A stretch of 64,000 bases of DNA from an uncultured Eubacteriales bacterium (GTDB lineage Bacteria; Acidobacteriota; Aminicenantia; Aminicenantales; UBA4085): NCBI GenBank assembly GCA_964537875.1, contig CAZIDN010000007.1, positions 6,720-70,719 on the forward strand, written 5' to 3'. Every line of letters begins with the position of its first letter. The stretch's first letter is position 1. Position numbers and translations under genes: made by a program. Below, piece after piece: positions 1,566 through 16,745 of the stretch. Below the pieces are notes generated by a model, which saw only the letters and a list, made by a program, of their open reading frames with translations, did not search any database and was not told where the DNA came from.

Positions 1566-1634
1566 GGGGTCAAACCTACTCGTTACGCTAAATTCTCTCG
1601 GGGAAGATGCGTAACGAGTAGGTTTGACCCCGGA
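1566..1634. repeat. Family-A palindromic element, copy A1. GGGGTCAAACCTACTCGTTACGC / loop TAAATTCTCTCGGGGAAGAT / GCGTAACGAGTAGGTTTGACCCCGGA. A partial tail TATTGACCCGGGATT follows.
   Basis: A perfect 23-bp stem is seen directly in the sequence. It sits immediately 3' of the stop of the first CDS. Three related copies are at 13529, 14064 and 16609. Confidence 0.85.
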
Positions 1635-1663
1635 TATTGACCCGGGATTCTTTCGGGAGCAAC

Positions 1664-2371
1664 ATGACGGAAAAAAAAGACAGGAAAAAAAGAGATAAGA
1701 GCGTCGTCCGCGAATATTTTGAGCTCATCGCCGAGACGGCCGTCTTCGTCTTTTTCGTGATGACGTTCGTCGTCCAGGCTTTCCAGATTCCCACGGGCTC
1801 GATGGAGCCGACGCTCCTCGTCGGCGACTTCCTCCTGGTCAACAAGCTCATCTATGCCAACACGATCTCGCCCATCGAAGAGAAAATTCTCTCCCGGAGA
1901 AATATCAAACGGAAAGACATCATTGTCTTCAAATGGCCGAATGACCTGACCAAGGATTTCGTCAAACGCGCCATCGGGCTGCCGGGAGAAAAACTGGAGA
2001 TCAAAAACAAGCAGGTTTATATCAACGACAGGCCGTTGGAGGAAAAATACAAGGTCCACTCCGACAGCGATATTAGGTCCGCGAATGATGCTGCCAATTA
2101 CAGTAATGACCCCCGCGACAATTTCGGCCCGGTCATCGTCCCCGAAGGGCATATTTTTGCCATGGGCGACAATCGCGACAACAGCGATGACAGTCGCTTC
2201 TGGGGCTTTTTGCCGCTCACCAACGTGAAAGGACGGCCGTGGTTCATCTACTTCTCTTACCAGGCGGAGCGGGACGCATACCAGAAGACCGGCTTCAGGG
2301 ACAGGTTGAATAAGCTGGTCAATTTCCTGCCGAAAGCAAGGTGGCGGCGGATCCTGAAAGTGATTCGCTGA
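1664..2371 (+). CDS. lepB: Signal peptidase I (S26 family)
   Basis: An N-terminal TM segment is present. The motifs GSMEPTL (catalytic Ser box), KRAIGLPGE (Lys box) and GDNRDNSDDSRFWGF (box E) are present. The ATG at 1664 is preferred over the tracked TTG at 1637 because a GGGAG Shine-Dalgarno lies 5 nt upstream. Confidence 0.85.
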   Translation: MTEKKDRKKRDKSVVREYFELIAETAVFVFFVMTFVVQAFQIPTGSMEPTLLVGDFLLVNKLIYANTISPIEEKILSRRNIKRKDIIVFKWPNDLTKDFVKRAIGLPGEKLEIKNKQVYINDRPLEEKYKVHSDSDIRSANDAANYSNDPRDNFGPVIVPEGHIFAMGDNRDNSDDSRFWGFLPLTNVKGRPWFIYFSYQAERDAYQKTGFRDRLNKLVNFLPKARWRRILKVIR

Positions 2372-2444
2372 TCGGCAAAATGAGATTTTTTTCTTTTAAT
2401 TTATTCCCAGGCTACGAAAAAAGGCCGGTTTTCGAAAACCCAAA

Positions 2445-2473
2445 TTGACAGGGCCTGCCGTATTCCTTATAAT
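2445..2473 (+). promoter_or_regulatory. Consensus sigma70-type promoter, TTGACA-17nt-TATAAT. A 14-bp perfect palindrome GGTTTTCGAAAACC (2427-2440) abuts the -35 and is a possible operator.
   Basis: Both hexamers match consensus exactly with a 17-nt spacer. The element lies 32 nt upstream of a small ORF that has a strong Shine-Dalgarno. Confidence 0.45.
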
Positions 2474-2504
2474 TCCTTCATGATTATGCAGGGGAGAAAA
2501 TAAT

Positions 2505-2687
2505 ATGTACGTTCTCACCGTCCACTTTAATGATGATACTTCGATTTCCGAGGATTTCGATATGCTGAGCCAGGCAGAAATCAGAGCCCACAAATTTTTG
2601 CAATCCGGATATAAAGGGAAGCAGGGAGAGAAGACGATCTTTTATCCTGTCCATACGATCAAAAAACTCGAGATCGCAACGAAATAG
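2505..2687 (+). CDS. Orphan small protein (60 aa), function unknown
   Basis: A GGGGAG Shine-Dalgarno sits 8 nt before the ATG. A perfect consensus promoter is upstream and a hairpin downstream. The ORF lies in an AT-rich (~40% GC) patch of a ~60% GC genome. No recognisable motifs were found. Confidence 0.4.
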   Translation: MYVLTVHFNDDTSISEDFDMLSQAEIRAHKFLQSGYKGKQGEKTIFYPVHTIKKLEIATK

Positions 2688-2713
2688 GAGACAGGGACAT
2701 CTGGGGGGACATA

Positions 2714-2735
2714 GCACTTTGTCCCCTGCTTTGAA
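2714..2735 (+). terminator. Hairpin GGGGACA-tagcactt-TGTCCCC followed by TGCTTTG. Weak intrinsic-terminator candidate for the small ORF.
   Basis: A 7-bp GC-rich stem with a U-containing tail lies right after the stop at 2687. Confidence 0.25.
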
Positions 2736-2982
2736 AAAGATATTTATTGGAAAATATTTCCTCTTTGCCGCGGCCGGAGCCCTGAACTCGGTAATTTCGC
2801 TTTTTTATTATTTTCGCATCGGCAGGGCTATGTTCATGGAAGAGAGTCTTCCGGATGTCCGCATCGAGCCTTCGGTCCCTGTCATTGCGGTCCTGGCGTT
2901 TTCGGCCCTGGCCCTCCTCGTTTTCGGTATTTTTCCTTCTCTCCTGACATCCTTGGCGGCCGCCTCGACCCTTCTCAATTAG
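2719..2982 (+). pseudogene. NuoN / antiporter-subunit C-terminal remnant (~85 aa, ...SVISLFYYFRIGRAMFMEE...), probable gene fragment
   Basis: The sequence matches the conserved C-terminal helix of NuoN/MnhD-type subunits (aVisLyYYlRvv...). There is no N-terminal 400+ aa. Its ATG lies inside the preceding hairpin and no Shine-Dalgarno is present. Confidence 0.35.
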
Positions 2983-3019
2983 CCGCAAAAATAACTTCGT
3001 TTTTCCCTCCAAGAAAGCC

Positions 3020-3049
3020 TTGACATTCCCCTTCGGAAAAAAATATACT
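3020..3049 (+). promoter_or_regulatory. Candidate promoter of the hydrogenase operon, TTGACA-18nt-TATACT
   Basis: The -35 is consensus and the -10 is near-consensus, ending about 12 nt before the ATG at 3061. The leader is therefore very short. Confidence 0.35.
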
Positions 3050-3060
3050 TTGCCTTCAAA

Positions 3061-4485
3061 ATGAACATTGAGACAATAACACTTCTCACTGTTTTTGTCC
3101 CAATCATTGGCGCCCTCACCATCCCGCTGGCCAGCCTCATCTCTAAGTCCGCCCGGTCGGCCTGGTCCGTCCTCCTCGGCGGCGTCACCGCGCTCCTCCC
3201 CTTGCTCCTCATCCCGACGGCCATCAGCGGCGGCGAAACCATTATCCGGAAGGAGTTCATCCTGGGGCTGGACTTCATCCTCATCATCGACCCTCTGTCC
3301 ATTTTCATGTCCATCGTCTCCTCGTTCGTCGGCTTCCTGATCATCGTCTATTCCCTCGGCTACATCCATCACGAGGAAAACCAGAATGAATACTACCTGA
3401 TGGTGGTCCTCTTCATCGGGGCCATGATGGGGCTGGTGTATTCGGGAAACCTGATCTTCATCTATCTTTTCTGGGAGATCATCGCCATCTGCTGCTGGCG
3501 CCTGATCGGATTTTACCGGCTGAAGGATCATATCCTCAAGGCCGACAAGGCCTTCCTGGTCACGTTCTTCGGGGCCGTGGTCATGCTCCTGGGATTCATC
3601 CAGATCTACGGAAGCACGAATTCATTCGACTTGACGGCAATGCGCGGAACTATGATTCCCGGGACCGCCGTCCTGATGATCCTCTTCGGCATGTTCTCCA
3701 AATCGGCGACGGTGCCCCTTCACACCTGGCTACCAGACGCCGGCGTCGCACCGACGACGGTGACCGCTTTGCTCCACGCGGCGGTGCTCGTCAAAATCGG
3801 CGTCTATGCCTACGCCCGACTTTTCTTGTATACGTTCAAGCTCCCCGGTGACTGGCCGCAGGTCATCCCCATCCTGGCCGTCATCTCGAGCTTGATCGCG
3901 GCCGCTGCGGCGACGGTTGAAAACGACTTCAAGCGCATCCTGGCCTACTCGACGGTAAGCCAGATCGGCTATATCTTTCTTGGCTTCAGTGTGGCCAACC
4001 AATCCGGGGTCTCGGGCTCGTTGCTTTTCATCCTGATGCACGGCCTGGCCAAGGCCGGACTCTTCCTCTGCGCCGGGATCGTCATCCACGCTACGCACAA
4101 ACGGGACATCCGAGAAATGGGCGGGCTGATCAAGACCATGCCCATCACCGCCGTCGCCTTCCTGCTCTGCTCTTTCTCGGTCATCGGCATTCCTCCCTTC
4201 GGAGGCTTCTTCTCCAAGTTCCTGGTCATCATGGGAACCGTCCAGGCCGGACAGGTCTGGGTTGCGGCCGTCGCCCTCTTCACGGCCGTCCTGACCATGT
4301 TTTACCTGCTCAAGGTTTTCAGCCAGGTCTTCCTGGGAGAAGTGAAAATCGCCGCGCCGGAAAAAACGAGATCCATGATTTTTGTCGTCGCCCTCCTGGC
4401 CATCTTATCCCTGGTCGCGGGCATCTTCGTCTCTTATCCCGCCAAAATGGCCGAGATCGCGACGACCCATATCATTGGCGGCTAA
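3061..4485 (+). CDS. Group 4 [NiFe]-hydrogenase membrane subunit, NuoL/M/N-type proton-pumping antiporter-like (HyfB/MnhD-like), copy 1
   Basis: Polytopic membrane protein. It carries the hallmark motifs PLHTWLPDA...TTVTALLHAA...KIGVYAYARL and AYSTVSQIGYIFLG. Confidence 0.8.
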   Translation: MNIETITLLTVFVPIIGALTIPLASLISKSARSAWSVLLGGVTALLPLLLIPTAISGGETIIRKEFILGLDFILIIDPLSIFMSIVSSFVGFLIIVYSLGYIHHEENQNEYYLMVVLFIGAMMGLVYSGNLIFIYLFWEIIAICCWRLIGFYRLKDHILKADKAFLVTFFGAVVMLLGFIQIYGSTNSFDLTAMRGTMIPGTAVLMILFGMFSKSATVPLHTWLPDAGVAPTTVTALLHAAVLVKIGVYAYARLFLYTFKLPGDWPQVIPILAVISSLIAAAAATVENDFKRILAYSTVSQIGYIFLGFSVANQSGVSGSLLFILMHGLAKAGLFLCAGIVIHATHKRDIREMGGLIKTMPITAVAFLLCSFSVIGIPPFGGFFSKFLVIMGTVQAGQVWVAAVALFTAVLTMFYLLKVFSQVFLGEVKIAAPEKTRSMIFVVALLAILSLVAGIFVSYPAKMAEIATTHIIGG

Positions 4486-4486
4486 A

Positions 4487-6352
4487 ATGACACCGAACAT
4501 GCTTCTATGGCCGATTCTCCTGCCGGCCCTCATTGCCATCATCTGCCTGATCATTCCCAAGCGCATCAAATATCTCAGAGAAGCCATAGCCCTGATAGCC
4601 TCCCTCGTCGTCCTCTACATGGGATTTAAGCTCTTCTCCGTCAAAAACCTGGAATTCCGCCTCCCCTGGATGGGACAGGGCATTAATTTCGAGCTTCGGC
4701 TGTACCATTTTTCGAGCTTCATCCTGCTCGGCCTGGCCGGATTTCTCTTCCTCATCACCCTATATTCCATCGTCAAGATGAAGGACCACCCACGCCGGAA
4801 TGAATATTATGCCTATGTCTTCCTGTCCGCCGCGCTGGCCAACGGGGCCGTCTTAGCCGACAACTTCGTCCCGCTGGTCTTCTTCTGGGAAGGCCTGCTT
4901 TTGACGCTCTACGGCCTGATCTCGCTCGGCCGGAAAGAATCCAACCGGACCGCGGTCAAGGCGTTCATCATCAGCGGGTTCTGCGATTTTTGCATGATCC
5001 TCGGGATCGGCATCCTCTGGACGATCACCGGCACGCTGACCATGTCCCAGATCTCGATCAAACCCGAAGGCCCGGCCGCGGCCGCGTTCATCCTGATGAT
5101 GATCGGCGCCATCGGAAAAGCGGGGGCCATGCCGTTCCACACCTGGATCCCCGATGCCGCCATCGATGCTCCCGTGACCTTCATGGCCTTCATGCCGGCC
5201 TCCTTTGAAAAGCTGCTGGGCATCTACCTTCTGGCCCGGATCACGCTCGACCTTTTCAAATTGGAAAAGGGCAGCGCTCTGTCCCTCACTCTGATGATCA
5301 TCGGCGCCGCGACCATCGTCTTCGCGGTCATGATGGCCCTCATCCAGAAGGATTTCAAGCGGCTGCTCTCCTATCACGCCGTGAGCCAGGTCGGATACAT
5401 GATCCTGGGCATCGGAACGGCCATTCCCATCGGCATTGCCGGCGGGATCTTCCACATGATTAACCACGCCATGTATAAATGCGGGCTCTTCTTGAGCGCA
5501 GGCTCGGTCGAGCACCGGACCGGAACAACGGAGCTGAAAAAACTGGGCGGCCTGAGCAGAGAGATGCCCTGGACGGCCTTCGGTTTTTCAGTTTGCGCTC
5601 TGGCCATCTCGGGAGTCTGGCCCCTCAACGGCTTTGTCTCCAAGGAAATGGTGTTCCACGGCGCCCTGGAAAGCGGCTATACCATCTTCGCCATCGCCGC
5701 TTGGGTCGGCGCGATCTTCACTTTCGCCTCGTTCCTCAAGGCCGGCCATTCCGTGTTCTTCGGGCCAAGAACGAAGGACGTTCCCGCCGTCAAAGAGAGC
5801 CAAGGCGCCATCGTCGTCCCGATCCTGATCCTGGCGATCCTCTGCATCACCTTCGGCGTGTTCAACAAGCTGCCCTTGACCAACTTCATCCAGCCCATTC
5901 TTGAAGGCCACTTCGAGGCCGGCGAAAGCATCGACTTCACGGCCCATGCCCTGAGCATCTTCAACCCCGTGGCCGGCATCTCGATCCTCTGCCTGCTGAT
6001 CGCCCTGGCCATCCATTTCTACGGCTGGAAACGCGGCGGCAAGAAAGCCTACATGGCCTCCGAGCCCGTTCACAAGTTCCCCGGGATCAAACAGGTTTAT
6101 GACCTGGCCGAAGCCCGCGTCTTCGACCTCTACGAACAGGGCATCATCTTCCTGAGAGGGCTGTCGGTCGTCCTGTTCAAGGGAATCGACCGGCCCATCG
6201 ATTTCTTCTACGAGAAAATCGTCACAGCCGTGGGCAGGGCCTTCACCGGCGTTTTGAGTAAAGCCCATACCGGCCATTACGCCAATTACCTGGCCTGGTG
6301 CCTGGCCGGGCTGCTCGTCATTGCCACCCTGATCAATTTGCTGATAAAATAG
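4487..6352 (+). CDS. Group 4 [NiFe]-hydrogenase membrane subunit, NuoL-type antiporter-like (long form, ~620 aa), copy 2
   Basis: Motifs MPFHTWIPDA and SYHAVSQVGYMILG are present. The ATG at 4487 follows the stop of the previous gene by 1 nt. The tracked start at 4382 overlaps the upstream gene and is unlikely. Confidence 0.8.
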   Translation: MTPNMLLWPILLPALIAIICLIIPKRIKYLREAIALIASLVVLYMGFKLFSVKNLEFRLPWMGQGINFELRLYHFSSFILLGLAGFLFLITLYSIVKMKDHPRRNEYYAYVFLSAALANGAVLADNFVPLVFFWEGLLLTLYGLISLGRKESNRTAVKAFIISGFCDFCMILGIGILWTITGTLTMSQISIKPEGPAAAAFILMMIGAIGKAGAMPFHTWIPDAAIDAPVTFMAFMPASFEKLLGIYLLARITLDLFKLEKGSALSLTLMIIGAATIVFAVMMALIQKDFKRLLSYHAVSQVGYMILGIGTAIPIGIAGGIFHMINHAMYKCGLFLSAGSVEHRTGTTELKKLGGLSREMPWTAFGFSVCALAISGVWPLNGFVSKEMVFHGALESGYTIFAIAAWVGAIFTFASFLKAGHSVFFGPRTKDVPAVKESQGAIVVPILILAILCITFGVFNKLPLTNFIQPILEGHFEAGESIDFTAHALSIFNPVAGISILCLLIALAIHFYGWKRGGKKAYMASEPVHKFPGIKQVYDLAEARVFDLYEQGIIFLRGLSVVLFKGIDRPIDFFYEKIVTAVGRAFTGVLSKAHTGHYANYLAWCLAGLLVIATLINLLIK

Positions 6353-6383
6353 TTAATTTGAAGAAAGATATAGAGGAGGACCT

Positions 6384-7865
6384 TTGATTTTCCTGTTCAT
6401 CGGCTTGCCCATCCTGGCCGCCGCCGTCCTGCCCCTGATAGGGAAAATATCCAAAAAATTTCTGCCCGATCTCGTCTCCAACGCCGTTTTCCTCTTCCTC
6501 CTCGTCCTTGCCGCAACCTCCGGCCGCCAGATGATCAGCCAGGGTCCCATCCTCAAGCAGCTCAACTGGCTGGGCGAACCGGTCAGCATCCAGGTCGCGG
6601 TCGACGGCTTCAGCCTGTTCATGCTGATGGTCATTTCGCTCCTGACCCTGTGCGTCGGCCTGTTTTCCATCAACTATATGGACCATTACGGCTCCAAGTC
6701 CATCTACTACGCCCTCCTTCTGATGATGATGGCGGGGATGAACGGGCTCGTCCTCGTGACCGACCTCTTCAGCGTTTATCTTTTCCTGGAAGTCGCCGCG
6801 ATCGCTTCCTACTCCCTTGTCGCCTACGGCCTGGAGCACGACGAGCTCGAGGCCTCCTTTAAATATTTGATGCTCTCGGTCATCGCCTCGGCGGGCATTC
6901 TGCTCAGCATCGCCGTCATCTTCGGAATGACGGGGAACCTCGGCTTTGCCGCCGTGGCCGAAAGCCTGCGGAGCCTGGACGCCAAATTCGTGGTCGGTTT
7001 TTGCGCCGCCCTCTTTATCATGGGCTTCGGCTTGAAGGCGGCCCTCGTCCCCTTTCATGCCTGGCTTCCGGACGCCCACCCTTCCGCGCCGGCCCCGATC
7101 TCGGCCATCCTGTCCGGCCTGCTCATCAAAGTTTCCGGCGTCTATGCTCTGGCCAGAATATTTTTTAACGTCTTCGGCCTGACCCCCGCCCTTTCCCAGA
7201 TCTTAATGTATCTCGGCGCCATTTCCATCGTGGTCGCCGCCTTTCTCGCCCTCGGCCAGAAAGACATGAAGCGCATGCTCGCCTACTCTTCGATCAGCCA
7301 GGTGGGATATGTCGTCCTGGGCCTGGGGATCGGCACGCCGCTGGGAATCGCCGGCGGGCTCTTCCATCTCTTCAATCACGCCGTGGCCAAAGGGCTCCTC
7401 TTCTTGAATTCAGGCTCGGTCCAGCAGTCGACCGGAACGCGAAACCTTGATGAAATGGGAGGATTGGCCAGGCGGATGCCCGTGACCGCGGCCACCAACC
7501 TCGTCGGCTCGCTCTCGATCTCGGGCGTACCGCCCCTCGGCGGATTCTGGAGCAAGCTGATCATCATCATGGCCCTGGTCCAGGCGGACGAGTGGTTCCT
7601 GGCCGTCGTCGCCGTCCTGGCCAGCGTGCTCACCCTCTGGTACTATCTCCTCATCCAGCGCAAGGCCTTCTTCGGCAAGTTGAATGAGCGCTGGAAGGAT
7701 GTCAAGGAGGCGCCGTTCTGGATGACGGCCTCGACCGTCATCCTGGCGCTCCTCGTCATCGGCATCGGCATCTTTTTCTCGACCGTCATATCATCCTGGA
7801 TCCAGCCCGCTTCGGACGTGCTGGCCAAGGGAGTCAATCTCTTGTTCGCGTCATGGGGATTTTAG
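6384..7865 (+). CDS. Group 4 [NiFe]-hydrogenase membrane subunit, NuoM/N-type antiporter-like (HyfD/F-like), copy 3
   Basis: Motifs VPFHAWLPDAHPSAPAPISAILSGLLIKVSGVYALARI and AYSSISQVGYVVLG are present. It uses a TTG start preceded by a GAGGAGGA Shine-Dalgarno. Confidence 0.8.
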   Translation: MIFLFIGLPILAAAVLPLIGKISKKFLPDLVSNAVFLFLLVLAATSGRQMISQGPILKQLNWLGEPVSIQVAVDGFSLFMLMVISLLTLCVGLFSINYMDHYGSKSIYYALLLMMMAGMNGLVLVTDLFSVYLFLEVAAIASYSLVAYGLEHDELEASFKYLMLSVIASAGILLSIAVIFGMTGNLGFAAVAESLRSLDAKFVVGFCAALFIMGFGLKAALVPFHAWLPDAHPSAPAPISAILSGLLIKVSGVYALARIFFNVFGLTPALSQILMYLGAISIVVAAFLALGQKDMKRMLAYSSISQVGYVVLGLGIGTPLGIAGGLFHLFNHAVAKGLLFLNSGSVQQSTGTRNLDEMGGLARRMPVTAATNLVGSLSISGVPPLGGFWSKLIIIMALVQADEWFLAVVAVLASVLTLWYYLLIQRKAFFGKLNERWKDVKEAPFWMTASTVILALLVIGIGIFFSTVISSWIQPASDVLAKGVNLLFASWGF

Positions 7866-7868
7866 AAG

Positions 7869-8351
7869 ATGATTCTGCAAATCGTTCTTTTAAGCGGATT
7901 GCTTCTCTTCTCCATCCTGGCCATCCTGTCCAAGGACCTTCTTAAATCGGCCATCAGCCTGGCCATCGCCAGCCTCCTTCTCGGAATCATTTTTTTCCGA
8001 ATGAGCGCTCCCTACGCCGGCGTCTTCGAGATTTCGGTCGTGGCCGGCTTGATCACGGTCCTCTTCATCCTGACCATCGCCCTAACCAAGGCGGAAGGCG
8101 ACGTCCGCGAGGCCAAGCTGGCCAAGCTCGTGTTCCCCCTGTTTTTCGTGATCTTCATCCTCATCGACGTCTTCGTCATGAAGAGCCTCCTCCAGAAGAT
8201 ACCGGCGCTCCCCGAGACCGCGGAGCAAGGCACCTTCGGGGATGTCCTGTGGAAGCAGAGGACGTTCGACCTCATCGGCCAGCTGGCGGTCATACTGGCG
8301 GGAGTCTTCTCCGTCCTGGCCCTGTTCCGAAAGAGGGACAAAAATGAATAA
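7869..8351 (+). CDS. Small hydrophobic hydrogenase/Mrp-type subunit (MnhB-like)
   Basis: A 160-aa protein with four predicted TM helices. Its position in the operon matches MnhB/MbhF-type subunits. Confidence 0.45.
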   Translation: MILQIVLLSGLLLFSILAILSKDLLKSAISLAIASLLLGIIFFRMSAPYAGVFEISVVAGLITVLFILTIALTKAEGDVREAKLAKLVFPLFFVIFILIDVFVMKSLLQKIPALPETAEQGTFGDVLWKQRTFDLIGQLAVILAGVFSVLALFRKRDKNE

Positions 8352-8652
8352 CACCTGGTTTCTATACATGGGCTTCGCGGCCGGCTTGATTTTTGTCGGC
8401 GTCTACTGTCTGTTGGCCATGAAAAACGTGATCAAGCTCTTCATCGGCATCGAAGTCATCAGCAAGGGCGTCAGCCTGGCCCTGCTGGCCAGCGGATTCG
8501 TCAGGAAGAACACGCTCCTGGCCCAGAGCCTGGTCATCACCTTCATCGTGGTCGAAGTCAGCCTCGTCGCCACCGCCTTGGCCATCATCATCAACATCTA
8601 CAAGCACACCAAGAGCCTGGACATCCGGAAGCTGACGAAATTGAAAGGGTAA
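8344..8652 (+). CDS. NuoK/MnhC-like small membrane subunit
   Basis: About 100 aa with 3 TM helices and a KNVIKLFIGIEVISKGVSLALL pattern typical of the NuoK/MnhC family. The ATG at 8344 overlaps the upstream stop by 8 nt. Confidence 0.5.
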   Translation: MNNTWFLYMGFAAGLIFVGVYCLLAMKNVIKLFIGIEVISKGVSLALLASGFVRKNTLLAQSLVITFIVVEVSLVATALAIIINIYKHTKSLDIRKLTKLKG

Positions 8653-8655
8653 ATT

Positions 8656-9409: not shown

Positions 9410-9422
9410 ATTTGAGGAGTCT

Positions 9423-9896
9423 ATGAACGACCTAGAGATTATCGAAAAAACGAAAAGCCTCCTCGGCGATAAGATCCTCGAGATTGCCAATCCGGCCGTG
9501 AGGCGCATTTTCATAAAAGTCGAACCCCAGAATCTGGTGCCCGTCGTCGGCGGCCTCAAGAAGAACCTCAACATCACCTATCTGGCGACCGTAAGCGGCG
9601 TGGATTTGGGAGAGTACTTTGAGATTCTCTATCATTTCGGCCACAACAACGGCAGCCTGACCGTCCGGACCCAGATCCCCAAGGCCAATCCCCACATCGA
9701 AAGCATCTGCTCCGTCATCCCCGGAGCGATCCTCTATGAACGGGAACTCCAGGATATGTTCGGCATCGTCGTAGACCATCTCCCCGACCCGAGACCGCTG
9801 GTCCTCCCGGATGGATGGCCGGCCGGCAACTTCCCCCTCCGGAAGGAGTGGAAATTCGAGCGTCCCGAAGAGATCATCCCCGGAGGCAAGAAATGA
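9423..9896 (+). CDS. NuoC-like (30 kDa) subunit of group 4 hydrogenase (EchD/MbhK-like)
   Basis: Size and position between the NuoB- and NuoD-like genes fit. The family fit of ERELQDMFGI is weak. Confidence 0.6.
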   Translation: MNDLEIIEKTKSLLGDKILEIANPAVRRIFIKVEPQNLVPVVGGLKKNLNITYLATVSGVDLGEYFEILYHFGHNNGSLTVRTQIPKANPHIESICSVIPGAILYERELQDMFGIVVDHLPDPRPLVLPDGWPAGNFPLRKEWKFERPEEIIPGGKK

Positions 9897-11095
9897 AGTT
9901 CACTATTCCCATCGGCCCCCAGCACCCCGCTCTAAAAGAGCCGATCAGCCTGCGGATGACCGTCGAAGGGGAAGTCATCCAGGACGCCGACATCCGCCTC
10001 GGCTATAACCACCGCGGCTTGGAGAAGCTGGCCGAAGAAAGGACATGGATTCAGAATATCTACCTGACCGAGCGCATTTGCGGCATCTGTTCCCACTCCC
10101 ACGCCACCTGCTATGTCCAGGGCGTGGAGAAGCTCATGGAGCTCAATCCTCCCAAGCGCGGCTTGTATATCCGGACGCTCGTCGCGGAGCTCGAGCGCAT
10201 TCACAGCCATCTGCTCTGGTTGGGCGTGGCGGGCCACGAGGCTGGCTTCGACTCGTTCTTCATGTACACCTGGCGGGATCGCGAAGTCGTGATGGACCTC
10301 CTGGAAATGATCTCGGGGAACCGCGTTCACTATGCCATTAATGCTATCGGCGGCGTGCGCCGGGACATCGACGAGATGCAAAGAAAGAAGATCCTGGACG
10401 GATTGGAGATCTTAAAGACGAGAACCGAATACTACTTCAAAATAGGCGTCAATGAGCCGACTTTCGTCGGCCGCCTGGCCGGAGTCGGGTATCTGTCCAA
10501 GGAAAAAGCCGTCGACCTGTGCGCCGTCGGCCCGATGGCCCGGGCTTCCGACCTGCCCCAGGACGTGCGCAAAGACGATCCCTATGCCGTTTACGATGAG
10601 GTCCCCTTTGATGTCTGCACCGCGGACACCTGCGATGTCCTGGGAAGGACTGTGGTCCGGATCAAGGAGCTGTTCGAATCCTACAAAATCTGCGAATTCC
10701 TGATGAAAAACCTCCCTCCCGGAGACATCGCCGTCAAGGCTCCGACGCGGGCCAAGCCGAACGAGGTCGTCAGCCGCTACGAAGCGCCCCGGGGAGAGAA
10801 TACTCATTACATCAAGTCCAACGGAACAAACAAGCCGGAGCGGCTGAAAGTCCGGGCGCCGACCCTGGCCAACTATCCGGCCACGGTGGAAATGCTCAAA
10901 AACGGGTTCATCGCCGATATTCCCCTGATTTTTGCCGCCATCGATCCCTGTATCTGCTGCGCCGAGCGGACCGTGAACATCGTCAACGCCCAAACCGGCG
11001 AAGAAAAAATCCTGCGCTTCGACGAGCTGAGGGCCCTGGCCGAAGAACGATTTAAAAAAATGCCTCCAAAAAGGAATGCGGTGTGGCCGTTCTGA
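9893..11095 (+). CDS. Group 4 [NiFe]-hydrogenase large (catalytic) subunit, NuoD-like
   Basis: The L1 motif RICGICSHSH and the L2 motif DPCICCAER are both present. These are the four Ni-Fe-ligating cysteines, which complex I NuoD has lost. A ~40-aa tail follows the L2 motif, the usual substrate of a HycI-type endopeptidase. The start is the ATG at 9893, overlapping the upstream stop. Confidence 0.85.
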   Translation: MKFTIPIGPQHPALKEPISLRMTVEGEVIQDADIRLGYNHRGLEKLAEERTWIQNIYLTERICGICSHSHATCYVQGVEKLMELNPPKRGLYIRTLVAELERIHSHLLWLGVAGHEAGFDSFFMYTWRDREVVMDLLEMISGNRVHYAINAIGGVRRDIDEMQRKKILDGLEILKTRTEYYFKIGVNEPTFVGRLAGVGYLSKEKAVDLCAVGPMARASDLPQDVRKDDPYAVYDEVPFDVCTADTCDVLGRTVVRIKELFESYKICEFLMKNLPPGDIAVKAPTRAKPNEVVSRYEAPRGENTHYIKSNGTNKPERLKVRAPTLANYPATVEMLKNGFIADIPLIFAAIDPCICCAERTVNIVNAQTGEEKILRFDELRALAEERFKKMPPKRNAVWPF

Positions 11096-12054
11096 AGGAT
11101 CTGCTTTACCTGATCGTCTATCCGGGGATCATTTTTCTCTTCGTCTATTCCACATTCTGCGAATGGTTTGACCGGAAAGTCTATGCCCGCCTGCAGAACC
11201 GAATGGGCCCGACACACACGGGCCGCTGGGGCCTCCTTCAGCCGGTGGCCGATTTTTTCAAGCTCATGGCCAAGGAAGACATCGTCCCCGATAAAGCCGA
11301 CAAGACGCTGTTCAACCTCCTTCCGGTCTTCGGCCTGGCCATCGTAGCCACGGCCGGGCTTCTTCTTCCCCTCTGGCACTATAATCCGGCAAAAGCGGGT
11401 TTCAATTCGTTCCCCGGAGACGTGATCGTTGTTCTCTATCTCTTGAGCCTGCCGACCTTGATCTTCTTCCTGGCCGGCTGGTCGTCGACGAATCTCTTTT
11501 CGACGATCGGCGGCACGCGCGTGCTGACCATGCTCTTCGGCTATGAAGTTCCCCTTTTCATGGCCGTCCTCAGCCCGGCCATCCTGGCCAATTCCTGGCG
11601 GCTCGTCGAGATCGCCGCGTTCTACCAGAAAAAACCGTGGCTCATTCTGCCCAACCTGCTGGGTTTGGTCATCGCCATCATTTGCGTCCAGGCCAAGCTG
11701 GAGCGGACGCCGTTTGATATTCCCCATGCCGAAACGGAGATCGTCGGGGGAACTTTCACGGAATACTCGGGCAAGAAGCTGGCCTTTTTCAGGCTGATGA
11801 CCGACATCGAAATGGTCGTCTCGAGCGGGCTTGTCGCCGCGGTCTTCCTGGGAGGCTTTCCAGGCGGGCTGTGGCTCGGCCTGCTGAATTTTGTCGTCAA
11901 GACGCTCTTTGTGATTTTCTTCCTGTCGCTCATCCGGGCTCTGACGTCGAGGATCAGGGTCGATCAGGTCGTCTCCTTCGCCTGGAAATATCTGGCTCCC
12001 CTGGCCGTCCTCCAGCTTCTCATCGTCATCTTAATCAAGGGATTGCTGTTATGA
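11083..12054 (+). CDS. NuoH-like membrane subunit (HycD/EchB/MbhM family)
   Basis: The motif ...RKVYARLQNRMGPTHTGRWGLLQPVADFFKL... is the NuoH/HycD signature. About 8 TM helices are predicted. It uses a GTG start. Confidence 0.8.
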   Translation: MAVLKDLLYLIVYPGIIFLFVYSTFCEWFDRKVYARLQNRMGPTHTGRWGLLQPVADFFKLMAKEDIVPDKADKTLFNLLPVFGLAIVATAGLLLPLWHYNPAKAGFNSFPGDVIVVLYLLSLPTLIFFLAGWSSTNLFSTIGGTRVLTMLFGYEVPLFMAVLSPAILANSWRLVEIAAFYQKKPWLILPNLLGLVIAIICVQAKLERTPFDIPHAETEIVGGTFTEYSGKKLAFFRLMTDIEMVVSSGLVAAVFLGGFPGGLWLGLLNFVVKTLFVIFFLSLIRALTSRIRVDQVVSFAWKYLAPLAVLQLLIVILIKGLLL

Positions 12055-12494
12055 AATTAGCGGTTTTTCTTCCGGAACTTCTTCGGAGTCTCTTCAAGAA
12101 GCCGAACACGGTGGATTATCCGTTCAAAAAACTTGAAGTTCCGAAGGATTTCCGCGGAACCCCCTTTCTCCATCCGGACCTCTGCATCGCCTGCCGGGCC
12201 TGCGAGCGGGACTGTCCGGCCGAGGCGATCGAGATCACTTCGGTGAGCGACGCCGAGAAGAAATTCAAGATGGTCATCCACAACGACCGCTGCATCCACT
12301 GCGCCCAATGCTTGGACTCCTGCCCCGTCGCGCCCGTGAAGGCCATGGATATGGACCACCTGTTCGAAATCGCCGACTTCGACCGCCATGACCTCAAGAA
12401 GGATTGGGTGTTCGTCAGGGCCGTCCTCAAGAAAGAGCCCAAGCCCGCGCCGCCTAACCCCGAACCCTCCCCGAAAACCGAGCCCGCCCAATAA
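12052..12494 (+). CDS. NuoI-like 2x[4Fe-4S] ferredoxin subunit (HycF/EchF/MbhN family)
   Basis: Two CxxCxxCxxxCP motifs are present (CIACRACERDCP and CIHCAQCLDSCP). The ATG at 12052 is preferred over the upstream-overlapping tracked start. Confidence 0.8.
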
Positions 12495-12630
12495 CAATAC
12501 GGGGACAGGTACTTCCGACCTTTTTTTCCAACTCATTGTTTAACAACGAACGGGAATTCATATCAGGACTCTGAGGTTTTTTGAAATAGTTTATTTATCT
12601 TTGGAAGGAAGGATTTCCATATATGTAATT

Positions 12631-12755
12631 TGGATGAGGTGCCGGAATCGCCCCCAGTCCCCTGGGGAACCAGTCCCGTCGGTTCCCCCCGTCGAATAAC
12701 GACGGGGCCCCCCTCCGCTATGGGGACTTTAGGGGCGATTCCGGCACCTCATCCA
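12631..12755. repeat. Family-B structured repeat, copy B1 (core in reverse orientation relative to B2-B4). The outer 23-bp stem is TGGATGAGGTGCCGGAATCGCCC / GGGCGATTCCGGCACCTCATCCA.
   Basis: The core (reverse complement) is CCCCATAGCGGAGGGGGGCCCCGTCG-ttatt-CGACGGGGGGAACCGACGGGACTGGTTCCCCAGGGG. It lies between the last hydrogenase structural gene and the maturation-protease gene. Confidence 0.85.
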
Positions 12756-12859
12756 AACCAAATAAACGGATATGCTTACTTTTTGGGATGCGTCCTGTTT
12801 TTTTACAACAAGAACGCTTAAAATATAGAAGTGAGTTTAGGCTCACGGTATTCGGTTTT

Positions 12860-13390
12860 ATGAAAAAAGATATGTCCTCTCCTCCTGCCGCCTGGAAAGG
12901 CCGGCTCAAGAAGGAAATCCTTTCCGCCCGAAGGATCGTCATCCTGGCCGCGGGAAATCTCACCAAAGGAGATGATGCCGCGGGCATTCAATGCGCCCAA
13001 AAGCTAAAAAAATTGATGGGCGGGAAAGCCCGCTCATGCTTGAAGATTTTGCTCGGCCATGAAACCCCGGAGAATGCCACAGGCGAGATTCGGAAGTTCC
13101 GGCCTGACCTTGTCCTGATCCTCGATGCCGCCCAGGGGGGACATAATCCCGGAACTGTTTTTATCGTTGAGAAAAACCAGATCGAAGATGAAAGCGTCTC
13201 AACACACACAATTTCGTTGGCGTTGCTTGTCGTTTATCTGGAAGAAACAATCGGCTGCAAAGTGATGGTTCTGGGGATTCAGCCCCTCAGCCTAGGCTTA
13301 GGCGAAAAAGTATCGGCCCGGATAATAAAATCTGCCGGGAGCCTCGCTGCTTTTCTTGCCCACGTTTTCACGGATACGAGCCTTAATTAG
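12860..13390 (+). CDS. Hydrogenase maturation endopeptidase (HycI/HyaD family)
   Basis: The motifs ILAAGNLTKGDDAAG, LVLILDAAQGGHNPG and TVFIVE match the metal-binding Asp/His pattern of hydrogenase C-terminal proteases. The ATG at 12860 (MKKDMS) is chosen because the tracked start at 12788 runs into the repeat. Confidence 0.7.
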   Translation: MKKDMSSPPAAWKGRLKKEILSARRIVILAAGNLTKGDDAAGIQCAQKLKKLMGGKARSCLKILLGHETPENATGEIRKFRPDLVLILDAAQGGHNPGTVFIVEKNQIEDESVSTHTISLALLVVYLEETIGCKVMVLGIQPLSLGLGEKVSARIIKSAGSLAAFLAHVFTDTSLN

Positions 13391-13528
13391 AACATTCCCG
13401 CCATATGTACCGCGCAAACCTTCGGTTTTCAATGGTCTTAGACTATGAATTCGCCCGTAGCAGGATCAACCCCGCTCATATGTTCCGGATCGGCCCGACG
13501 ATGACGCCGGCTGCCGCAGAGCATTGAC

Positions 13529-13613
13529 GGGGTCAAAGCTACTTTTTACGCATTATTCTCTCGGGGGGAAAGTGCGTAAAAAGTAGCTTTGACCCCGGAC
13601 TATTGACCCCGGA
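13529..13613. repeat. Family-A palindromic element, copy A3 (GGGGTCAAAGCTACTTTTTACGC / loop / GCGTAAAAAGTAGCTTTGACCCCGGA), plus a tandem partial repeat CTATTGACCCCGGATTTT
   Basis: Same architecture as A1/A2. The inner stem differs at 3 positions and each change is compensated. Confidence 0.85.
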
Positions 13614-13626
13614 TTTTCCCGGATTT

Positions 13627-13911
13627 TTAAGCCCTGATCTCAGCCCTGGCGTAGGCGTATTCCTTGAAAATCTTATCCCGAGACTCATGCTTTGAGCATT
13701 TCATCAAAAGAAGAAAGAGGTCTTCTTTGAGCCTTCTCCAAGCTTCTTCCTTGGTTTTTCCAACAGACCAAAAATCATAGATCGGGCAGTAGCAGAAATA
13801 GTATTTGGTCTGGTTTTTGATCTGTATGGGGGTTGATGGCGTCGCTGTTGCTGAAGTCTTCATAGTCCACCTCATCCAATCATCTTTGGTCGTCTGTTCC
13901 ATATCTCGCAA
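13627..13911 (-). CDS. UPF0150/HicB-like small protein (possible orphan antitoxin-like RNase-H-fold protein). Start codon uncertain; internal ATGs at 13902 and 13863 are alternatives.
   Basis: The segment IQIKNQTKYYFCYCPIYDFWSVGKTKEEAWRRLKEDL fits the UPF0150/HicB N-domain pattern (Y.a.vPe..G....G.T.EEA..n..eal). It lies in a 42% GC islet. No HicA-like partner ORF of at least 60 aa is present. Confidence 0.35.
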   Translation of the reverse strand: MRDMEQTTKDDWMRWTMKTSATATPSTPIQIKNQTKYYFCYCPIYDFWSVGKTKEEAWRRLKEDLFLLLMKCSKHESRDKIFKEYAYARAEIRA

Positions 13912-14063
13912 CTTTTCTTCCTTCCAGGATCATTTTTTCTTTTCCATATATATATACGAAGGCAAGGCCTGTTTTGTTGCCTCGTCTTTGCTAAAAATGA
14001 AAAAAATATGGTGAAGAGGGATGGAAGAGGGAAAGCCCCGTTTGCCGGTAAAATCCCTAGACG

Positions 14064-14132
14064 GGGTCAAACCTACTCGTTACGCATAATTCTCTTGGGG
14101 AGCGTGCGTAACGAGTAGGTTTGACCCCGGAT
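14064..14132. repeat. Family-A palindromic element, copy A2 (nearly identical to A1)
   Basis: GGGGTCAAACCTACTCGTTACGC-ATAATTCTCTTGGGGAGCGT-GCGTAACGAGTAGGTTTGACCCCGGA. Confidence 0.85.
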
Positions 14133-14217
14133 TTCTTATCAAGGAAAAGATATGGAAGGCCTAAGAATCCCCCTTCCCCCCAAACAAAGGCACAGGAGGA
14201 AAGGGGGATTCAACTCT

Positions 14218-15378
14218 CTAGATGATCTCGAGATAGTCCTTGCCGGGCAGCTTCGGGAAGGGCGCGTGCGGTTCGACCTGGTACCAATAGGCAACCGAGG
14301 CGATATCATCCTGGAGGGGCAGGTATCGCCCGCCGGACCTCCAGCCGAGCGCCTGGATCGTCACCTTGAGGTCTTTCTCGAAACGAACCGGGTCCATGAT
14401 GTGCCACCGATAGAGGCCGAAGCGCTGCTCAACATTGTAATGGCCGTCGCCCCGGATGACTTGGGCCAAGCCTGCGTACGGCGTCGTAAACTCGGTGTAG
14501 CGGATAACCCCATCCGGGCCGGGGGCATCGAAATCGTAAGATCCGCAGAAGTAATCCTCGGTCCCGGTTCCGGCGATCGTCGGAAAATCCGTGTCGCCGT
14601 CGAGGAAGAACTTGATTTCTCCCTCGCCCCACCAGCCGTTGTTGTTGACGCCCCAGGCCATATAGGTGCCGACATAGTGGCCCCAGCCTTTGACGCCGTC
14701 AAGGAGCGTATAGACGTTCTTATACGGCACCGGATTGACGCGCCGGAACTGGGCATGGAAGTAGCCGGCATCCTCGGGCACCTCAGTCAGGGTGTAATTG
14801 ATCTGGTAGTAAATCGTGAAATTTTCCTCGGCCATGTTTTCCAGGGTAACCTTGAAGGACTTGCGGAAAGGCATCTGCCAGTAAGAGTTGAAAGCCCGGC
14901 CCGGGTTGACGCAGACCGGAAGGGACGAGATTTGGGCGTACTTTCCCCAGCCGCAGGCGAAGAAATCGCCGATCGGAGCTTCGATCGAGGGCTCCTTTTC
15001 GCCGTCCCAATAGAATCGCAGGATGGCAAAGCGCCAGGTGCCGGACGGAGTCATCCAGATCTGTTGGATGGCGCCCATGCCCTGAACGTCGGCCAGGACG
15101 AACGTCTCTTTCGGCTTGATCACGACATAGGGTGACACCTTCCAGCCCTGGCCCAGGTCGCGTGCGGACTTCAGGGCCGGCCCGTCCGTCGACATGCCGG
15201 CCTTGCCTTTTTCGCCCGTGAAATTCTCCGGGCTGATCGACCGCGTCTTAGCATGAGACAGCCGGGAGAGGTTCCCCAGGTCAAGATAGAGTCCATCAAA
15301 CGGTTTTTTTTCCTGGGCGGCGTAAAGAACGATCCCCGCCAGCAGAACGACTGCCAATTTAACAACAGCTTTCTTCAT
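14218..15378 (-). CDS. DUF2961 / GH172-family glycoside hydrolase, secreted
   Basis: A signal peptide (MKKAVVKLAVVLLAGIVLYA) follows a perfect AGGAGG Shine-Dalgarno. The WGEGEIKFFLDGD and GTGTEDYF motifs are characteristic of DUF2961. Confidence 0.6.
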   Translation of the reverse strand: MKKAVVKLAVVLLAGIVLYAAQEKKPFDGLYLDLGNLSRLSHAKTRSISPENFTGEKGKAGMSTDGPALKSARDLGQGWKVSPYVVIKPKETFVLADVQGMGAIQQIWMTPSGTWRFAILRFYWDGEKEPSIEAPIGDFFACGWGKYAQISSLPVCVNPGRAFNSYWQMPFRKSFKVTLENMAEENFTIYYQINYTLTEVPEDAGYFHAQFRRVNPVPYKNVYTLLDGVKGWGHYVGTYMAWGVNNNGWWGEGEIKFFLDGDTDFPTIAGTGTEDYFCGSYDFDAPGPDGVIRYTEFTTPYAGLAQVIRGDGHYNVEQRFGLYRWHIMDPVRFEKDLKVTIQALGWRSGGRYLPLQDDIASVAYWYQVEPHAPFPKLPGKDYLEII

Positions 15379-15620
15379 AAAAACCTCCTTCCGAAATCGT
15401 TGATTTGATTTATATTTGCCGCGTCGAAAAAAGTCAAGCTTCTTCCTAGGTATCCAAAGCTGCCGATAATAGGAACGCACCAACCACGGTCTCTGAGCCT
15501 TCCATCAAAGCGCAACGAAGTGCCGACGCCCGACGGTGATTCTATCCGCGCATCTGGCTCAACAGAGGCTCGATAAAATCCGAAAATTATCGGATAATAG
15601 TCGCAAACGCCGGAGGATCC

Positions 15621-16592
15621 ATGGAACGACATCCCAAAAATCCGATATTGACCCGTAAGGATATTCCCGACATCCCTCCCCTGCTGACCGACGCCACATC
15701 GGTCTTCAATCCGGGCGCCGTCAAGTTCGGCGGCAAATATCTTCTCATGCTCCGCGTTCAGAGCCGCTCGCGCGAAACGTTTTTCTTGATGGCCGAGAGC
15801 CAGGATGGCGTGAAATTCACTGTCACCCGTGATCTCGTGGAACTCAAGGGAATCGAGAAGGTCAAAGAAAAAATCTACCATGTCTACGACGCCCGTATCA
15901 CTCAAATCGAAGGGGCTTACTACATCATGTTCGCCATGGATATGGACAGCGGCTGCCAGCTCGGCCTGGCTAAAACAGCCGATTTCCGCAGCTTCGATTT
16001 TCTTGGGATCACATCGACGGACGACGTCCGGAACGGCGTGCTCTTCCCGGAAAAAGTGGGCGGTAAGTATCTCCGGATGGAAAGGCCCAACAAAGCGCGC
16101 CTCGAAGGCGGTCCGACGACCGGCAGCACAATATGGCTGTCCGAATCCGAGGATCTCATCCATTGGAAAGAGCGCGCCCCACTGATTAGCGGCCGATTTC
16201 ATTACTGGGACGAATTTATCGGTTCCGGGCCGCCGCCCGTAAAAACACGAAGCGGCTGGCTTCATATCTACCACGGCGTAGCCACCCATTTCGGAAGCGC
16301 CAACATCTATCAGGCGGGCGTGATGCTGATGGACCTCCATGACCCGGCCAAAGTCATCGGCCGGTGCAGAGGAAATATCCTTGAGCCGCGTGAGTTGTAT
16401 GAGCTTGCCGGCCAGGTCCCCAACGTCGTTTTTCCCAGCGGGATGATCGTTGAGAAATTCGATCAGGCTGGATTCGCGATCCCTGAAAGTCCAGTGAAGG
16501 TTTATTACGGCGCCGCCGACACTACCGTCTGCCTGGCTACAACGACCATTCGGGAACTGCTTGCCGCCGCCCATGAATCGCCGATAATGTGA
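15621..16592 (+). CDS. GH130 family glycoside phosphorylase (beta-mannoside phosphorylase-like)
   Basis: The N-terminal NPILTRKDIP...VFNPGAVKFGGKYLLMLRV and the five-bladed propeller signatures of GH130 are present. Confidence 0.75.
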   Translation: MERHPKNPILTRKDIPDIPPLLTDATSVFNPGAVKFGGKYLLMLRVQSRSRETFFLMAESQDGVKFTVTRDLVELKGIEKVKEKIYHVYDARITQIEGAYYIMFAMDMDSGCQLGLAKTADFRSFDFLGITSTDDVRNGVLFPEKVGGKYLRMERPNKARLEGGPTTGSTIWLSESEDLIHWKERAPLISGRFHYWDEFIGSGPPPVKTRSGWLHIYHGVATHFGSANIYQAGVMLMDLHDPAKVIGRCRGNILEPRELYELAGQVPNVVFPSGMIVEKFDQAGFAIPESPVKVYYGAADTTVCLATTTIRELLAAAHESPIM

Positions 16593-16608
16593 TTGGCGGG
16601 ATCTTGGC

Positions 16609-16687
16609 GGGGTCAAGCCTCAACATTCAACATAATCTCTTTGGACTCACTCTTTATTCTTCTTGTTGAATGTTGAGGTTTGACCCC
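16609..16687. repeat. Family-A element, divergent copy A4. Conserved ends GGGGTCAA/TTGACCCC; unrelated 16-bp inner stem GCCTCAACATTCAACA/TGTTGAATGTTGAGGT; 31-nt loop containing TAATCTCTTTGG.
   Basis: Seen directly in the sequence. It lies immediately 3' of the GH130 gene and 5' of the Fur-family promoter. Confidence 0.7.
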
Positions 16688-16696
16688 GTTTTTCTC

Positions 16697-16745
16697 TTGA
16701 CAAGGACCCATAGTTTGTATAGAATCCAATTTGTAATGATTACAA
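16697..16745 (+). promoter_or_regulatory. Sigma70-type promoter TTGACA(16697-16702)-17nt-TAGAAT(16720-16725), plus the perfect 7-1-7 palindrome TTGTAATGATTACAA (16731-16745) that resembles a PerR/Fur box
   Basis: The palindrome spans the predicted +1 and the ATG (16736) of the Fur-family gene. It matches the PerR-box consensus TTATAATnATTATAA at 13 of 15 positions. Confidence 0.45.

Follow-up and report, generated by a model that had tools for sequence, protein, structure and literature searches.

What are the four long palindromes that lie between the genes of a 64,000-nt stretch of DNA from an uncultured, Aminicenantes-like bacterium (contig CAZIDN010000007.1, positions 6,720 to 70,719; the whole stretch is here called the window), and why are they conserved? 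An earlier note on this DNA had listed four copies, all of which are present: A1 (1566-1631), A3 (13529-13596), A2 (14063-14128) and A4 (16609-16687), none of them assigned to a strand. It had taken them for an undescribed family resembling repetitive extragenic palindromes (REPs) or bacterial interspersed mosaic elements (BIMEs), with a possible role as terminators or messenger RNA (mRNA) stabilisers. Our analysis indicates that A1-A4 are probably non-autonomous dimers of terminal inverted repeats (TIRs), similar to the REP doublets known as REPINs, which belong to a Y1 (HUH) transposase of the TnpA-REP or REP-associated tyrosine transposase (RAYT) lineage. The class to which we assign them is in fact published, as the TIR-associated tyrosine transposases with the TIR motif GGGGWSAS (PMC3733652; PMC6006769); its units have been named TIRtrons and its enzymes TIRYTs (Di Nocera et al., 2013).

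A Y1 transposase gene between the hairpins

The gene came to light on inspection of arrays of closely spaced copies (L111 and L141; L numbers denote the retrieved loci). In L111 a hairpin at 110-175, a 320-aa open reading frame (ORF) at 193-1155 and a second hairpin at 1157-1222 follow one another, with 18 nt upstream and 1 nt downstream of the gene. The same organization recurs in L235 (hairpin 210-275, gene 305-1255, hairpin 1258-1323) and in L141, where a 316-aa gene at 64-1014 has a hairpin on both sides; all three loci are metagenome contigs. In L033, from a metagenome-assembled genome (MAG) 92-95% identical to the window, a hairpin abuts the transposase stop codon, and the available 156 aa of the protein have 97% identity with its L111 counterpart. 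L111, L235 and L033 have a common right-hand neighbouring sequence, and L141, which is 87% identical, has the same spacer between the start codon and the hairpin. The REP/BIME-like nature proposed in the earlier note is borne out, and its suggestion of looking for a RAYT gene is answered in these close relatives by a Y1/HUH gene flanked on both sides by the same hairpins.

The L111 and L141 proteins match the Pfam domains Y1_Tnp (E 4e-12) and Bac_DnaA_C (E 7e-7), and the NCBIfam model of the REP-associated tyrosine transposase (NF047646) is matched with E 5e-19 over its positions 3-146 of 146. Neither the HUH motif (NHxHL) nor the tyrosine motif YIHLNPV varies among 23 aligned homologues. An AlphaFold model (pLDDT 81) finds as its best match in the PDB 4ER8, which is TnpA-REP with a REP hairpin (E 7e-6, target TM 0.74), followed by the TnpA proteins of IS608, ISDra2 and IS200, while its C-terminus resembles the DNA-binding domain of DnaA (3PVP, target TM 0.74; profile comparison with DnaA domain IV, E 5e-7). 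There are about 8000 candidate homologues, many of which were named 'REP element-mobilizing transposase RayT' by the Joint Genome Institute (JGI), and many of which lie on contigs of 1-2 kb.

Hairpins of the same general form are widespread. When 185,579 species genomes were scanned for the element tips plus TCTCT, 99 loci were recovered, about 70 of them with long perfect palindromes. The resulting set, which includes bystander copies in the genome-scan loci, comprises 87 palindromes with at least 13 contiguous stem pairs, and these fall into 33 families with unrelated inner stems. The hosts include Duganella/Rugamonas, Gammaproteobacteria, Syntrophobacterales, Chlamydiota, Clostridium, Myxococcales, Nitrospirae, Synergistales and Aminicenantes. 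Past the 8 nt imposed by the search, position 9 is a purine in 29/33 families, position 10 a pyrimidine in 27/33, and positions 11 and 12 are C and T, each in 26/33; from position 13 onward the sequence is random. As positions 9-12 are conserved past the imposed part, we define a 12-nt box, GGGGTCAARYCT.

None of the 87 elements has a target-site duplication, and no conserved flank was seen beside them. The viral collection holds only two loci, which are one Mu-like prophage region with hairpins in its intergenic spacers, and a BLAST search of a Duganella copy against plasmids gave no match. In the first 101 loci, a search for an autonomous element, with matching arms separated by 150-6000 nt, recovered only neighbouring hairpins. 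Among the neighbouring ORFs of the genome-scan loci (all-versus-all clustering, Pfam) only ABC ATPases, kinases and similar proteins recur, with two IS66 matches, none of them in L012; in the metagenome set the largest clusters are housekeeping paralogues, and the transposase falls in a small cluster of three loci. Literature searches with the tips and 12-mers as strings returned only irrelevant matches, the class being recognized only after the protein had been identified.

Homologues of the transposase with about 50% identity were examined in six lineages, in five of which the gene is bracketed by box-tipped inverted repeats starting with GGGGTCAG; the bracketed lineages include Deltaproteobacteria, Desulfobacterales and Synergistales. 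For instance, the inverted repeat of L231, GGGGTCAGTTCTTCATTCTTGACA (ATAGGGGTCAGTTCTTCATTCTTGACA), is 27 nt long and 96% complementary, with the stop codon of the gene within the right repeat. The genes of L232-234 are bracketed by inverted repeats with GGGGTCAG, that of L236 by 24-nt perfect inverted repeats with the same tip, and that of L237 by a left repeat GGGTCAGG and a right repeat GGGGTCAG. In L088 (Synergistales) a whole hairpin lies upstream of the gene and a single arm downstream, again with the tip GGGGTCAG, and hairpins with the gene-flanking arms are dispersed over the same contig. L230 (Nitrospirota) has only a variant, GGTGTCAGGTCT, repeated upstream, and no flanking pair of inverted repeats was found around its gene. 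With Aminicenantes counted, the transposase is hence physically associated with box-tipped repeats in six contig lineages, and in Nitrospirota with a variant box that is found only upstream. The bracketing of the homologues explains why 33 unrelated hairpin families have the 12-nt box in common, and, as the bracketing arms are box-tipped, the hairpins can be understood as the two terminal arms of the unit without the gene. We also observed that at three loci the right repeat overlaps the 3' end of the transposase gene (L231 3935-3961; L236 10935-10958; L237 10935-10958). The repeat encodes the conserved C-terminus ...SRMKT (SRVKT in L237), and the TGA of the box serves as the stop codon, which puts the box partly under coding constraint.

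A full unit consists of a gene of about 0.95 kb between two inverted arms of 24-28 nt, each starting with GGGGTCAARYCT; in the hairpins of 52-94 nt a short loop links both arms. Going by the example of IS200/IS605 and of E. coli TnpA-REP, an enzyme that in vitro processes REP folded as a single strand (PMC8266576), the transposase would act on the hairpin folded in single-stranded DNA, such as the lagging-strand template. Pairing of the arms would bring both ends together, and the conserved box at the foot of the stem would be the site of recognition, cutting and rejoining by the Y1 enzyme, possibly read by its DnaA-like domain. Such elements would be mobile, with excision and insertion proceeding without target duplication. 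A need for the stem, or else mismatch correction or template switching within the folded stem, would keep the arms complementary, and the loop and inner stem would be free to differ between lineages as long as pairing was roughly kept. Any terminator-like or mRNA-stabilizing effect would be a by-product.

Certain hosts have more elaborate layouts. In an Actinomycetota MAG (L036, 4100-4620 and 5430-5990) three to four direct units with GGGGTCAACCC are followed by three to four inverted ones at a spacing of about 45-50 nt; the arrays lie on both sides of a nitroreductase gene, and their layout is unlike that of simple hairpins. In uncultured Clostridium MAGs (L045, L058, L070, L097) each arm has a further pairing partner, an inverted near-copy immediately beyond the element, GATGTTTTTTGGGAC adjoining GGGGTCAAAAAACATC on one side and GATGTTTTTTGACCCC adjoining GTCCCAAAAAACATC on the other, and a three-hairpin structure is possible. 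Two ideas about the box were dropped, namely an origin from the tRNA T-arm (from its likeness to GTTCAARYC), as unneeded, and a function as outward-facing -35 promoter boxes.

Stem pairing, placement and rival explanations

A metagenome scan with GGGGTCAAASCTA...TAGSTTTGACCCC gave at least 120 loci and, together with the earlier loci, at least 169 non-redundant dimer copies. Among these, arm positions 14-24 pair perfectly in 88 copies, with one mismatch in 44 and with more in 37. In the ACGCA subfamily (87 copies among those listed), position 10 has C:G in 67 copies and G:C in 14, with 6 mispaired; position 16 has C:G in 71 and T:A in 8, with 8 mispaired; and position 17 has G:C in 24, A:T in 13 and T:A in 13, with 37/87 (43%) mispaired. 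When 63 distinct 66-nt copies are compared, 4 of the 24 pairs have double-sided changes, a number reached by 29/500 shuffles, and 25 cells are changed on both sides versus 9.6 expected, a number reached by 0/500. Stem covariation is real, and it rests on few events that were inherited by subfamilies. Of the earlier claim of selection on the hairpin, the compensated changes are confirmed, at four stem positions; A3 differs from A1 and A2 at arm positions 10, 16 and 17, as the note had seen, each change being mirrored on the opposite arm. Such selection as a strict rule is not supported: position 17 is frequently mispaired, the copies of A1, A2 and A4 at the same sites in the MAG JAPKZH01 (L094, L101; 92-95% identical to the window) have uncompensated substitutions in each, and arms of mixed subtype are common (L005:3791, L108:5616, L108:6454, L139). 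Selection for pairing and mismatch correction or template switching would either of them yield compensated subtypes, and the data fit both alike. The CG at arm positions 16-17 (window 1582, 13545 and 14079, and their partners) is a hot spot, with G, A and T nearly equal, and the mispairs at position 17 are mostly transitions, as expected for a deamination-prone CpG.

Could the hairpins be kept instead for work at the RNA level, as factor-independent terminators or 3'-end stabilizers, with the transposase association being incidental or historical? Their stability would suit such a role, as A1-A4 fold as single strands at -48 to -59 kcal/mol (z -7.9 to -11.6), and so would the GTTTTT that follows A4, with a promoter-like site for the Fur gene beyond it. 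We placed 142 copies among those listed relative to crude gene calls: 79 are in co-directional, 42 in convergent and 21 in divergent spacers, against 346, 122 and 109 background spacers, so that convergent spacers account for 30% of copies versus 21% of spacers. Within co-directional spacers the copies begin at a median of 14 nt past the upstream stop and end 41 nt ahead of the next start; they are nearer the stop in 49 cases and nearer the start in 29, and 56/79 lie at most 30 nt from the stop. Copies are also kept at orthologous sites with flanks that are only 75-85% identical. However, the loop has the same orientation as transcription in 27 cases and the opposite one in 27, and mismatches arising by transition on the sense strand are 18 G.U versus 25 A.C, without the G.U excess predicted by RNA-level constraint. 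The presence of 21/142 copies in divergent, that is promoter, spacers also speaks against this explanation, and a T-run is found after A4 only, A1-A3 being without one. An intrinsic-terminator scan leaves the stems of A1-A4 uncalled, its only call in the area being a small stem in the A1 tail (1629-1646), and Rfam 15 gives no match in the window at gathering and E-value thresholds, with only generic miRNA-like hairpins below threshold; a tRNA scan found none. A stem-foot box conserved across phyla would be unexpected for a terminator, and RNA effects could exist merely as by-products of the hairpin. We consider it unlikely, then, that an RNA role is the cause of the conservation, and that part of the earlier note is not upheld; the placement just 3' of stop codons that it described stands as a tendency, and not as a rule, with 15% of copies lying between divergent genes.

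Another explanation would see the hairpins as attC-like recombination sites at which small gene cassettes come and go. It draws on the ends being conserved and the inside variable, as in attC, and on several loci: the polymorphisms between L130 and L005 (Phd antitoxin) and between L165 and L160, the RHH and ParE pair between the L108 elements at 5616-5682 and 6454-6520, the arrangement of A3, a 94-aa ORF and A2 in the window, the synteny break at the A2 edge relative to three relatives, and single elements whose left arm is that of one flanking copy while their right arm is that of the second. Against this, there is no integrase among the neighbouring genes, the stems are perfect without bulges or extrahelical bases, and G at position 9 in 17/33 families destroys the AAC/GTT core triplets. 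Moreover, the copies are scattered among housekeeping genes in both orientations, and ordinary recombination or slippage deletion between flanking copies gives the same polymorphisms, so that we hold this explanation to be quite improbable. Classical miniature inverted-repeat transposable elements (MITEs), internally deleted from cut-and-paste insertion sequences of the DDE type, would account for terminal inverted repeats of 24-41 bp that are conserved at the tip and variable further in, and the GGGG tip is reminiscent of the Tn3 family. This explanation is already contradicted by the data: none of the 87 elements has a target-site duplication, the 0.8 + 0.8 Mb of flanking DNA contain no recurrent DDE transposase, the arms bracket no gene other than that of a Y1/HUH enzyme, and the Tn3-type inner motif TAAG is absent. 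Tn3-derived miniature elements in particular were rejected for want of a 5-bp duplication and of the TAAG motif.

Several observations weigh against the assignment to a TIRYT-class transposase. A tblastn search of the 64-kb window finds no transposase homologue, and the link to this genome thus runs through close relatives; the NF047646 score of 68.6 bits lies below the equivalog cut-off of 80. In some 40 orthologous comparisons, a search with flank pairs found no clean empty site, a result prone to ascertainment bias because the loci were fetched for containing an element. Homologues of LepB with 78-80% identity, used as a further empty-site test, are preceded by another gene, which makes the site unsuitable for comparison. 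The mispairing at position 17 and the mixed-subtype arms mean that any requirement for a perfect stem is loose. Finally, the Aminicenantes box tip GGGGTCAA ends in A where the published motif has S, a published survey saw no REP-like repeats near subclass 2.1 genes (Quentin et al., 2018; PMC6006769), and the TIRYT class is known from sequence alone, unlike the biochemically studied E. coli TnpA-REP.

With these points considered, the assignment to the TIRYT class would place an orphan repeat of the uncultured phylum Aminicenantes in a defined enzyme system, and would tie a little-studied branch of the REP transposases, held in the published view to have few or no repeats, to abundant hairpins that have one box in common in many phyla. 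We regard as modestly new the 12-nt box, how abundant and how phylogenetically widespread the hairpin form is, and the tails described below. A bolder proposal, which we put forward only tentatively and would sooner doubt than assert, is that the TIRYT class is the engine of REPIN-like hairpin populations in very many, mostly uncultured phyla and not a minor 'unproductive' relative of RAYTs. All of these populations might be read via the 12-bp stem-foot box, possibly by the DnaA-domain-IV-like module, and nicking at the box might also cause the orientation-specific tails and promote the gain and loss of small cassettes (e.g. toxin-antitoxin genes) between copies. In any case, tests of how a Y1-DnaA-like fusion recognizes DNA have a simple substrate in such a hairpin, in which the box is fixed and the inner stem free.

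Elements of the window, their tails and variable segments

A1 is a 66-nt hairpin with 23-bp perfect arms, GGGGTCAAACCTACTCGTTACGC, and the loop TAAATTCTCTCGGGGAAGAT, located 7 nt 3' of an esterase stop and 32 nt 5' of the LepB ATG (1664); orthologous copies are found in L094, L120 and L108. A2 (66 nt) and A3 (68 nt) have perfect arms of 24-25 bp (25 nt, 100% complementary). The near-identity of A1 and A2 seen earlier amounts to 91% over 70 nt, and A3 represents a subtype, G10/T16/T17, that also occurs in L056, L064, L125, L174 and L212. A3 lies between HycI (plus strand, stop 13390) and a 94-aa ORF (minus strand, stop 13627), which is followed by A2, 89 nt past the stop of a minus-strand GH172/DUF2961 gene; synteny with three relatives is broken at the left edge of A2. 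A4, a 79-nt hairpin with the arms GGGGTCAARCCTCAACATTCAACA (25 nt, 96% complementary, one G/T pair at position 9) and a 31-nt loop, has an inner stem unrelated to those of A1-A3, as the note had remarked, and is a member of a second family with further copies at L031:62 and L213:200 and orthologues in L001/L002, L101 and L108. It is situated 16 nt 3' of the GH130 stop and is followed by GTTTTT and the start of the Fur gene at 16736. The claim that every copy directly follows a stop codon is hence only partly true: it suits A1 and A4, but A2 lies at the distance given above and A3 is 138 nt after HycI; the stop triplet adjoining A3 closes only a 40-aa ORF. The loops of all four elements have one common direction on the plus strand, and A2 is therefore antisense to its upstream gene.

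The pattern GGGGTCAA-N30-60-TTGACCCC has three matches in the window versus none in 100 shuffles; A4 falls outside it because its gap is 63 nt. TTGACCCC by itself occurs 11 times versus 2.95 expected. We observed a solo box-like site, GGGGTCAAATCC, in an intergenic region at 49791-49830, which is followed by a small hairpin, ATCCCAA-N8-TTGGGAT, without the closing TTGACCCC and could be a remnant or due to chance. A near-consensus promoter, TTGACA-17-TAGAAT, is located at 16697-16725, after the GTTTTT of A4 and ahead of the Fur gene, and, given this direct succession, A4 may separate the GH130 transcript from the fur promoter. The window also carries a second, unrelated family of GC-rich palindromic repeats of about 90-180 nt (12605-12781, 20130-20305, 27836-27990 and 34263-34349) with the core ...CCCCATAGCGGAGGGGGGCCCCGTCGG...GGGGGGAACCGACGGGACTGGTTCCCC..., the copy at 12605-12781 being inverted relative to the other three.

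The extra tails reported for A1 and A3 are real. That of A1 (1632-1648, plus strand) starts with GGAT, after which 13 nt repeat the element end and flank as an imperfect tandem copy (1636-1648, ATTGACCCGGGAT). That of A3 (13597-13628, plus strand) consists of GGACTA and TTGACCCCGGA, a duplicate of the element end, followed by a second-level repeat of two copies of CCCGGATTTT, and is one of a general class seen across elements. In this class the tails are tandem duplicates of the last 5-13 nt of the element plus 2-10 nt of local flank, present at 20/166 ends, as compared with a single case of reverse orientation. Both the window and L108 have the A1 tail, which L094 and L120 lack at the orthologous site; as it varies between such close relatives, it is a secondary, polymorphic duplication. 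Tails also occur beside gene-flanking repeats, namely at the single left arm of L236 and at the upstream copies in L088 and L230, so simple slippage at a stalled hairpin is insufficient to explain them.

Polymorphisms of the type 'one element' versus 'element-cassette-element' recur, often with toxin-antitoxin genes. We observed cassettes with a Phd/YefM antitoxin, an RHH and ParE pair, or a CopG-like antitoxin between two hairpins (L005 3791-4649; L160 122-990; L108 5616-6520) where a relative has one hairpin (L130 1160-1226; L165 814-880), and the single hairpin corresponds to the outer arms of the pair, its left arm being that of one flanking copy and its right arm that of the second. This could reflect either deletion between flanking copies or insertion at a copy. 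Similarly, hairpins lie at the borders of larger segments that vary between the window and L108 (10709-12260; LepB 94% identical), in which LepB and GH172 are 1.7 kb apart versus about 11 kb in the window (2400-13400). The window segment of about 11 kb carries a Mrp/hydrogenase-like block, HycI and A3, and the extras of L108 are an AbiE pair and a DUF5128 gene. A stretch of about 175 nt at 2776-2952, resembling the C-terminal part of a membrane-subunit gene and corresponding to 20 nt in L094 (2268-2288), is an indel in a gene remnant unrelated to the hairpins. The hairpins thus mark synteny breakpoints and variable cassettes, and they break short-read assemblies, as seen in the many transposase contigs of 1-2 kb; the Logan contig L109, from the organism of the window, begins just downstream of A1, and extension of the LepB contig gave only a 1.7-kb contig.

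Comparison with known systems

The system resembles the REP/REPIN-RAYT systems (REPtrons) of Enterobacteria and Pseudomonas in having many short extragenic palindromes, a Y1 gene flanked by the repeat in inverted orientation (here L111, L235 and L141), hairpin doublets with compensated stem changes as the repeating unit, no target duplication and long retention at orthologous sites, and the best structural match of the transposase model is the E. coli TnpA-REP (4ER8). It departs from them in lacking the GTAG/CGTC tag at the element ends, the conserved part GGGGTCAARYCT lying instead inside the stem foot. Furthermore, single arms (e.g. GGGGTCAAACCTACTCGTTACGCA) are not self-complementary and fold only as a pair, whereas a REP unit is by itself an imperfect palindrome of 20-40 nt, two of which make up a REPIN; the enzyme has twice the length, with its DnaA-like DNA-binding domain; and the box is common across phyla, whereas REP sequences are species-specific. 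With IS200/IS605 and its miniature derivatives (PATEs, Nezha) the system has in common the HUH/Y1 domain and recognition through hairpins, and in neither case is the target duplicated or are double-stranded ends required. Those elements, however, lack terminal inverted repeats, carry different subterminal hairpins at their two ends, and insert beside a fixed target of 4-5 nt, whereas no conserved flank is seen here. Integron attC sites are likewise imperfect palindromes conserved only at the two ends, with a variable inner stem and loop, that are recognized as folded single strands and border small cassettes such as toxin-antitoxin genes; the elements described here differ in having no RYYYAAC/GTTRRRY core, no extrahelical bases and no integrase, and are not in one-directional arrays.

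The closest likeness is to the TIRtrons. In both cases the Y1/HUH transposase is longer than classical RAYTs, with a C-terminal helix-turn-helix, which in the class is of the Bac_DnaA_C, HTH_23 or HTH_28 type and here of the Bac_DnaA_C type (the genes in L111, L141, L235 and L033), and terminal inverted repeats bracket the gene, the right one of which may overlap its 3' end. The tip GGGGTCAG (L231, L232, L236, L088) fits GGGGWSAS. TIR families were described as 'moderately abundant', occurring as singles, dimers or clusters (Di Nocera et al., 2013; PMC3733652), and the dispersed repeats found here, i.e. at least 169 dimers, the 4 in the window and the L088 hairpins, take such forms. In the subsequent classification, 20/26 of the described examples fall in TnpA-REP subclass 2.1, whose group 2.1.2 has Bac_DnaA_C and is the one to which the present system corresponds (Quentin et al., 2018; PMC6006769), while abundant flanking repeats have been tied to RAYT groups 2 and 3 only (Bertels et al., 2017). 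The differences from the published units are that the dimer hairpin is here dominant and high in copy number (4 in 64 kb; at least 120 metagenome loci), whereas published TIRYTs were considered 'less productive', without REP-like repeats in subclass 2.1; that the Aminicenantes tip GGGGTCAA fits 7/8 positions of GGGGWSAS (A, not S, being last); that the conserved box extends over 12 nt; and that the Aminicenantes gene is flanked by whole hairpins, not by single arms.

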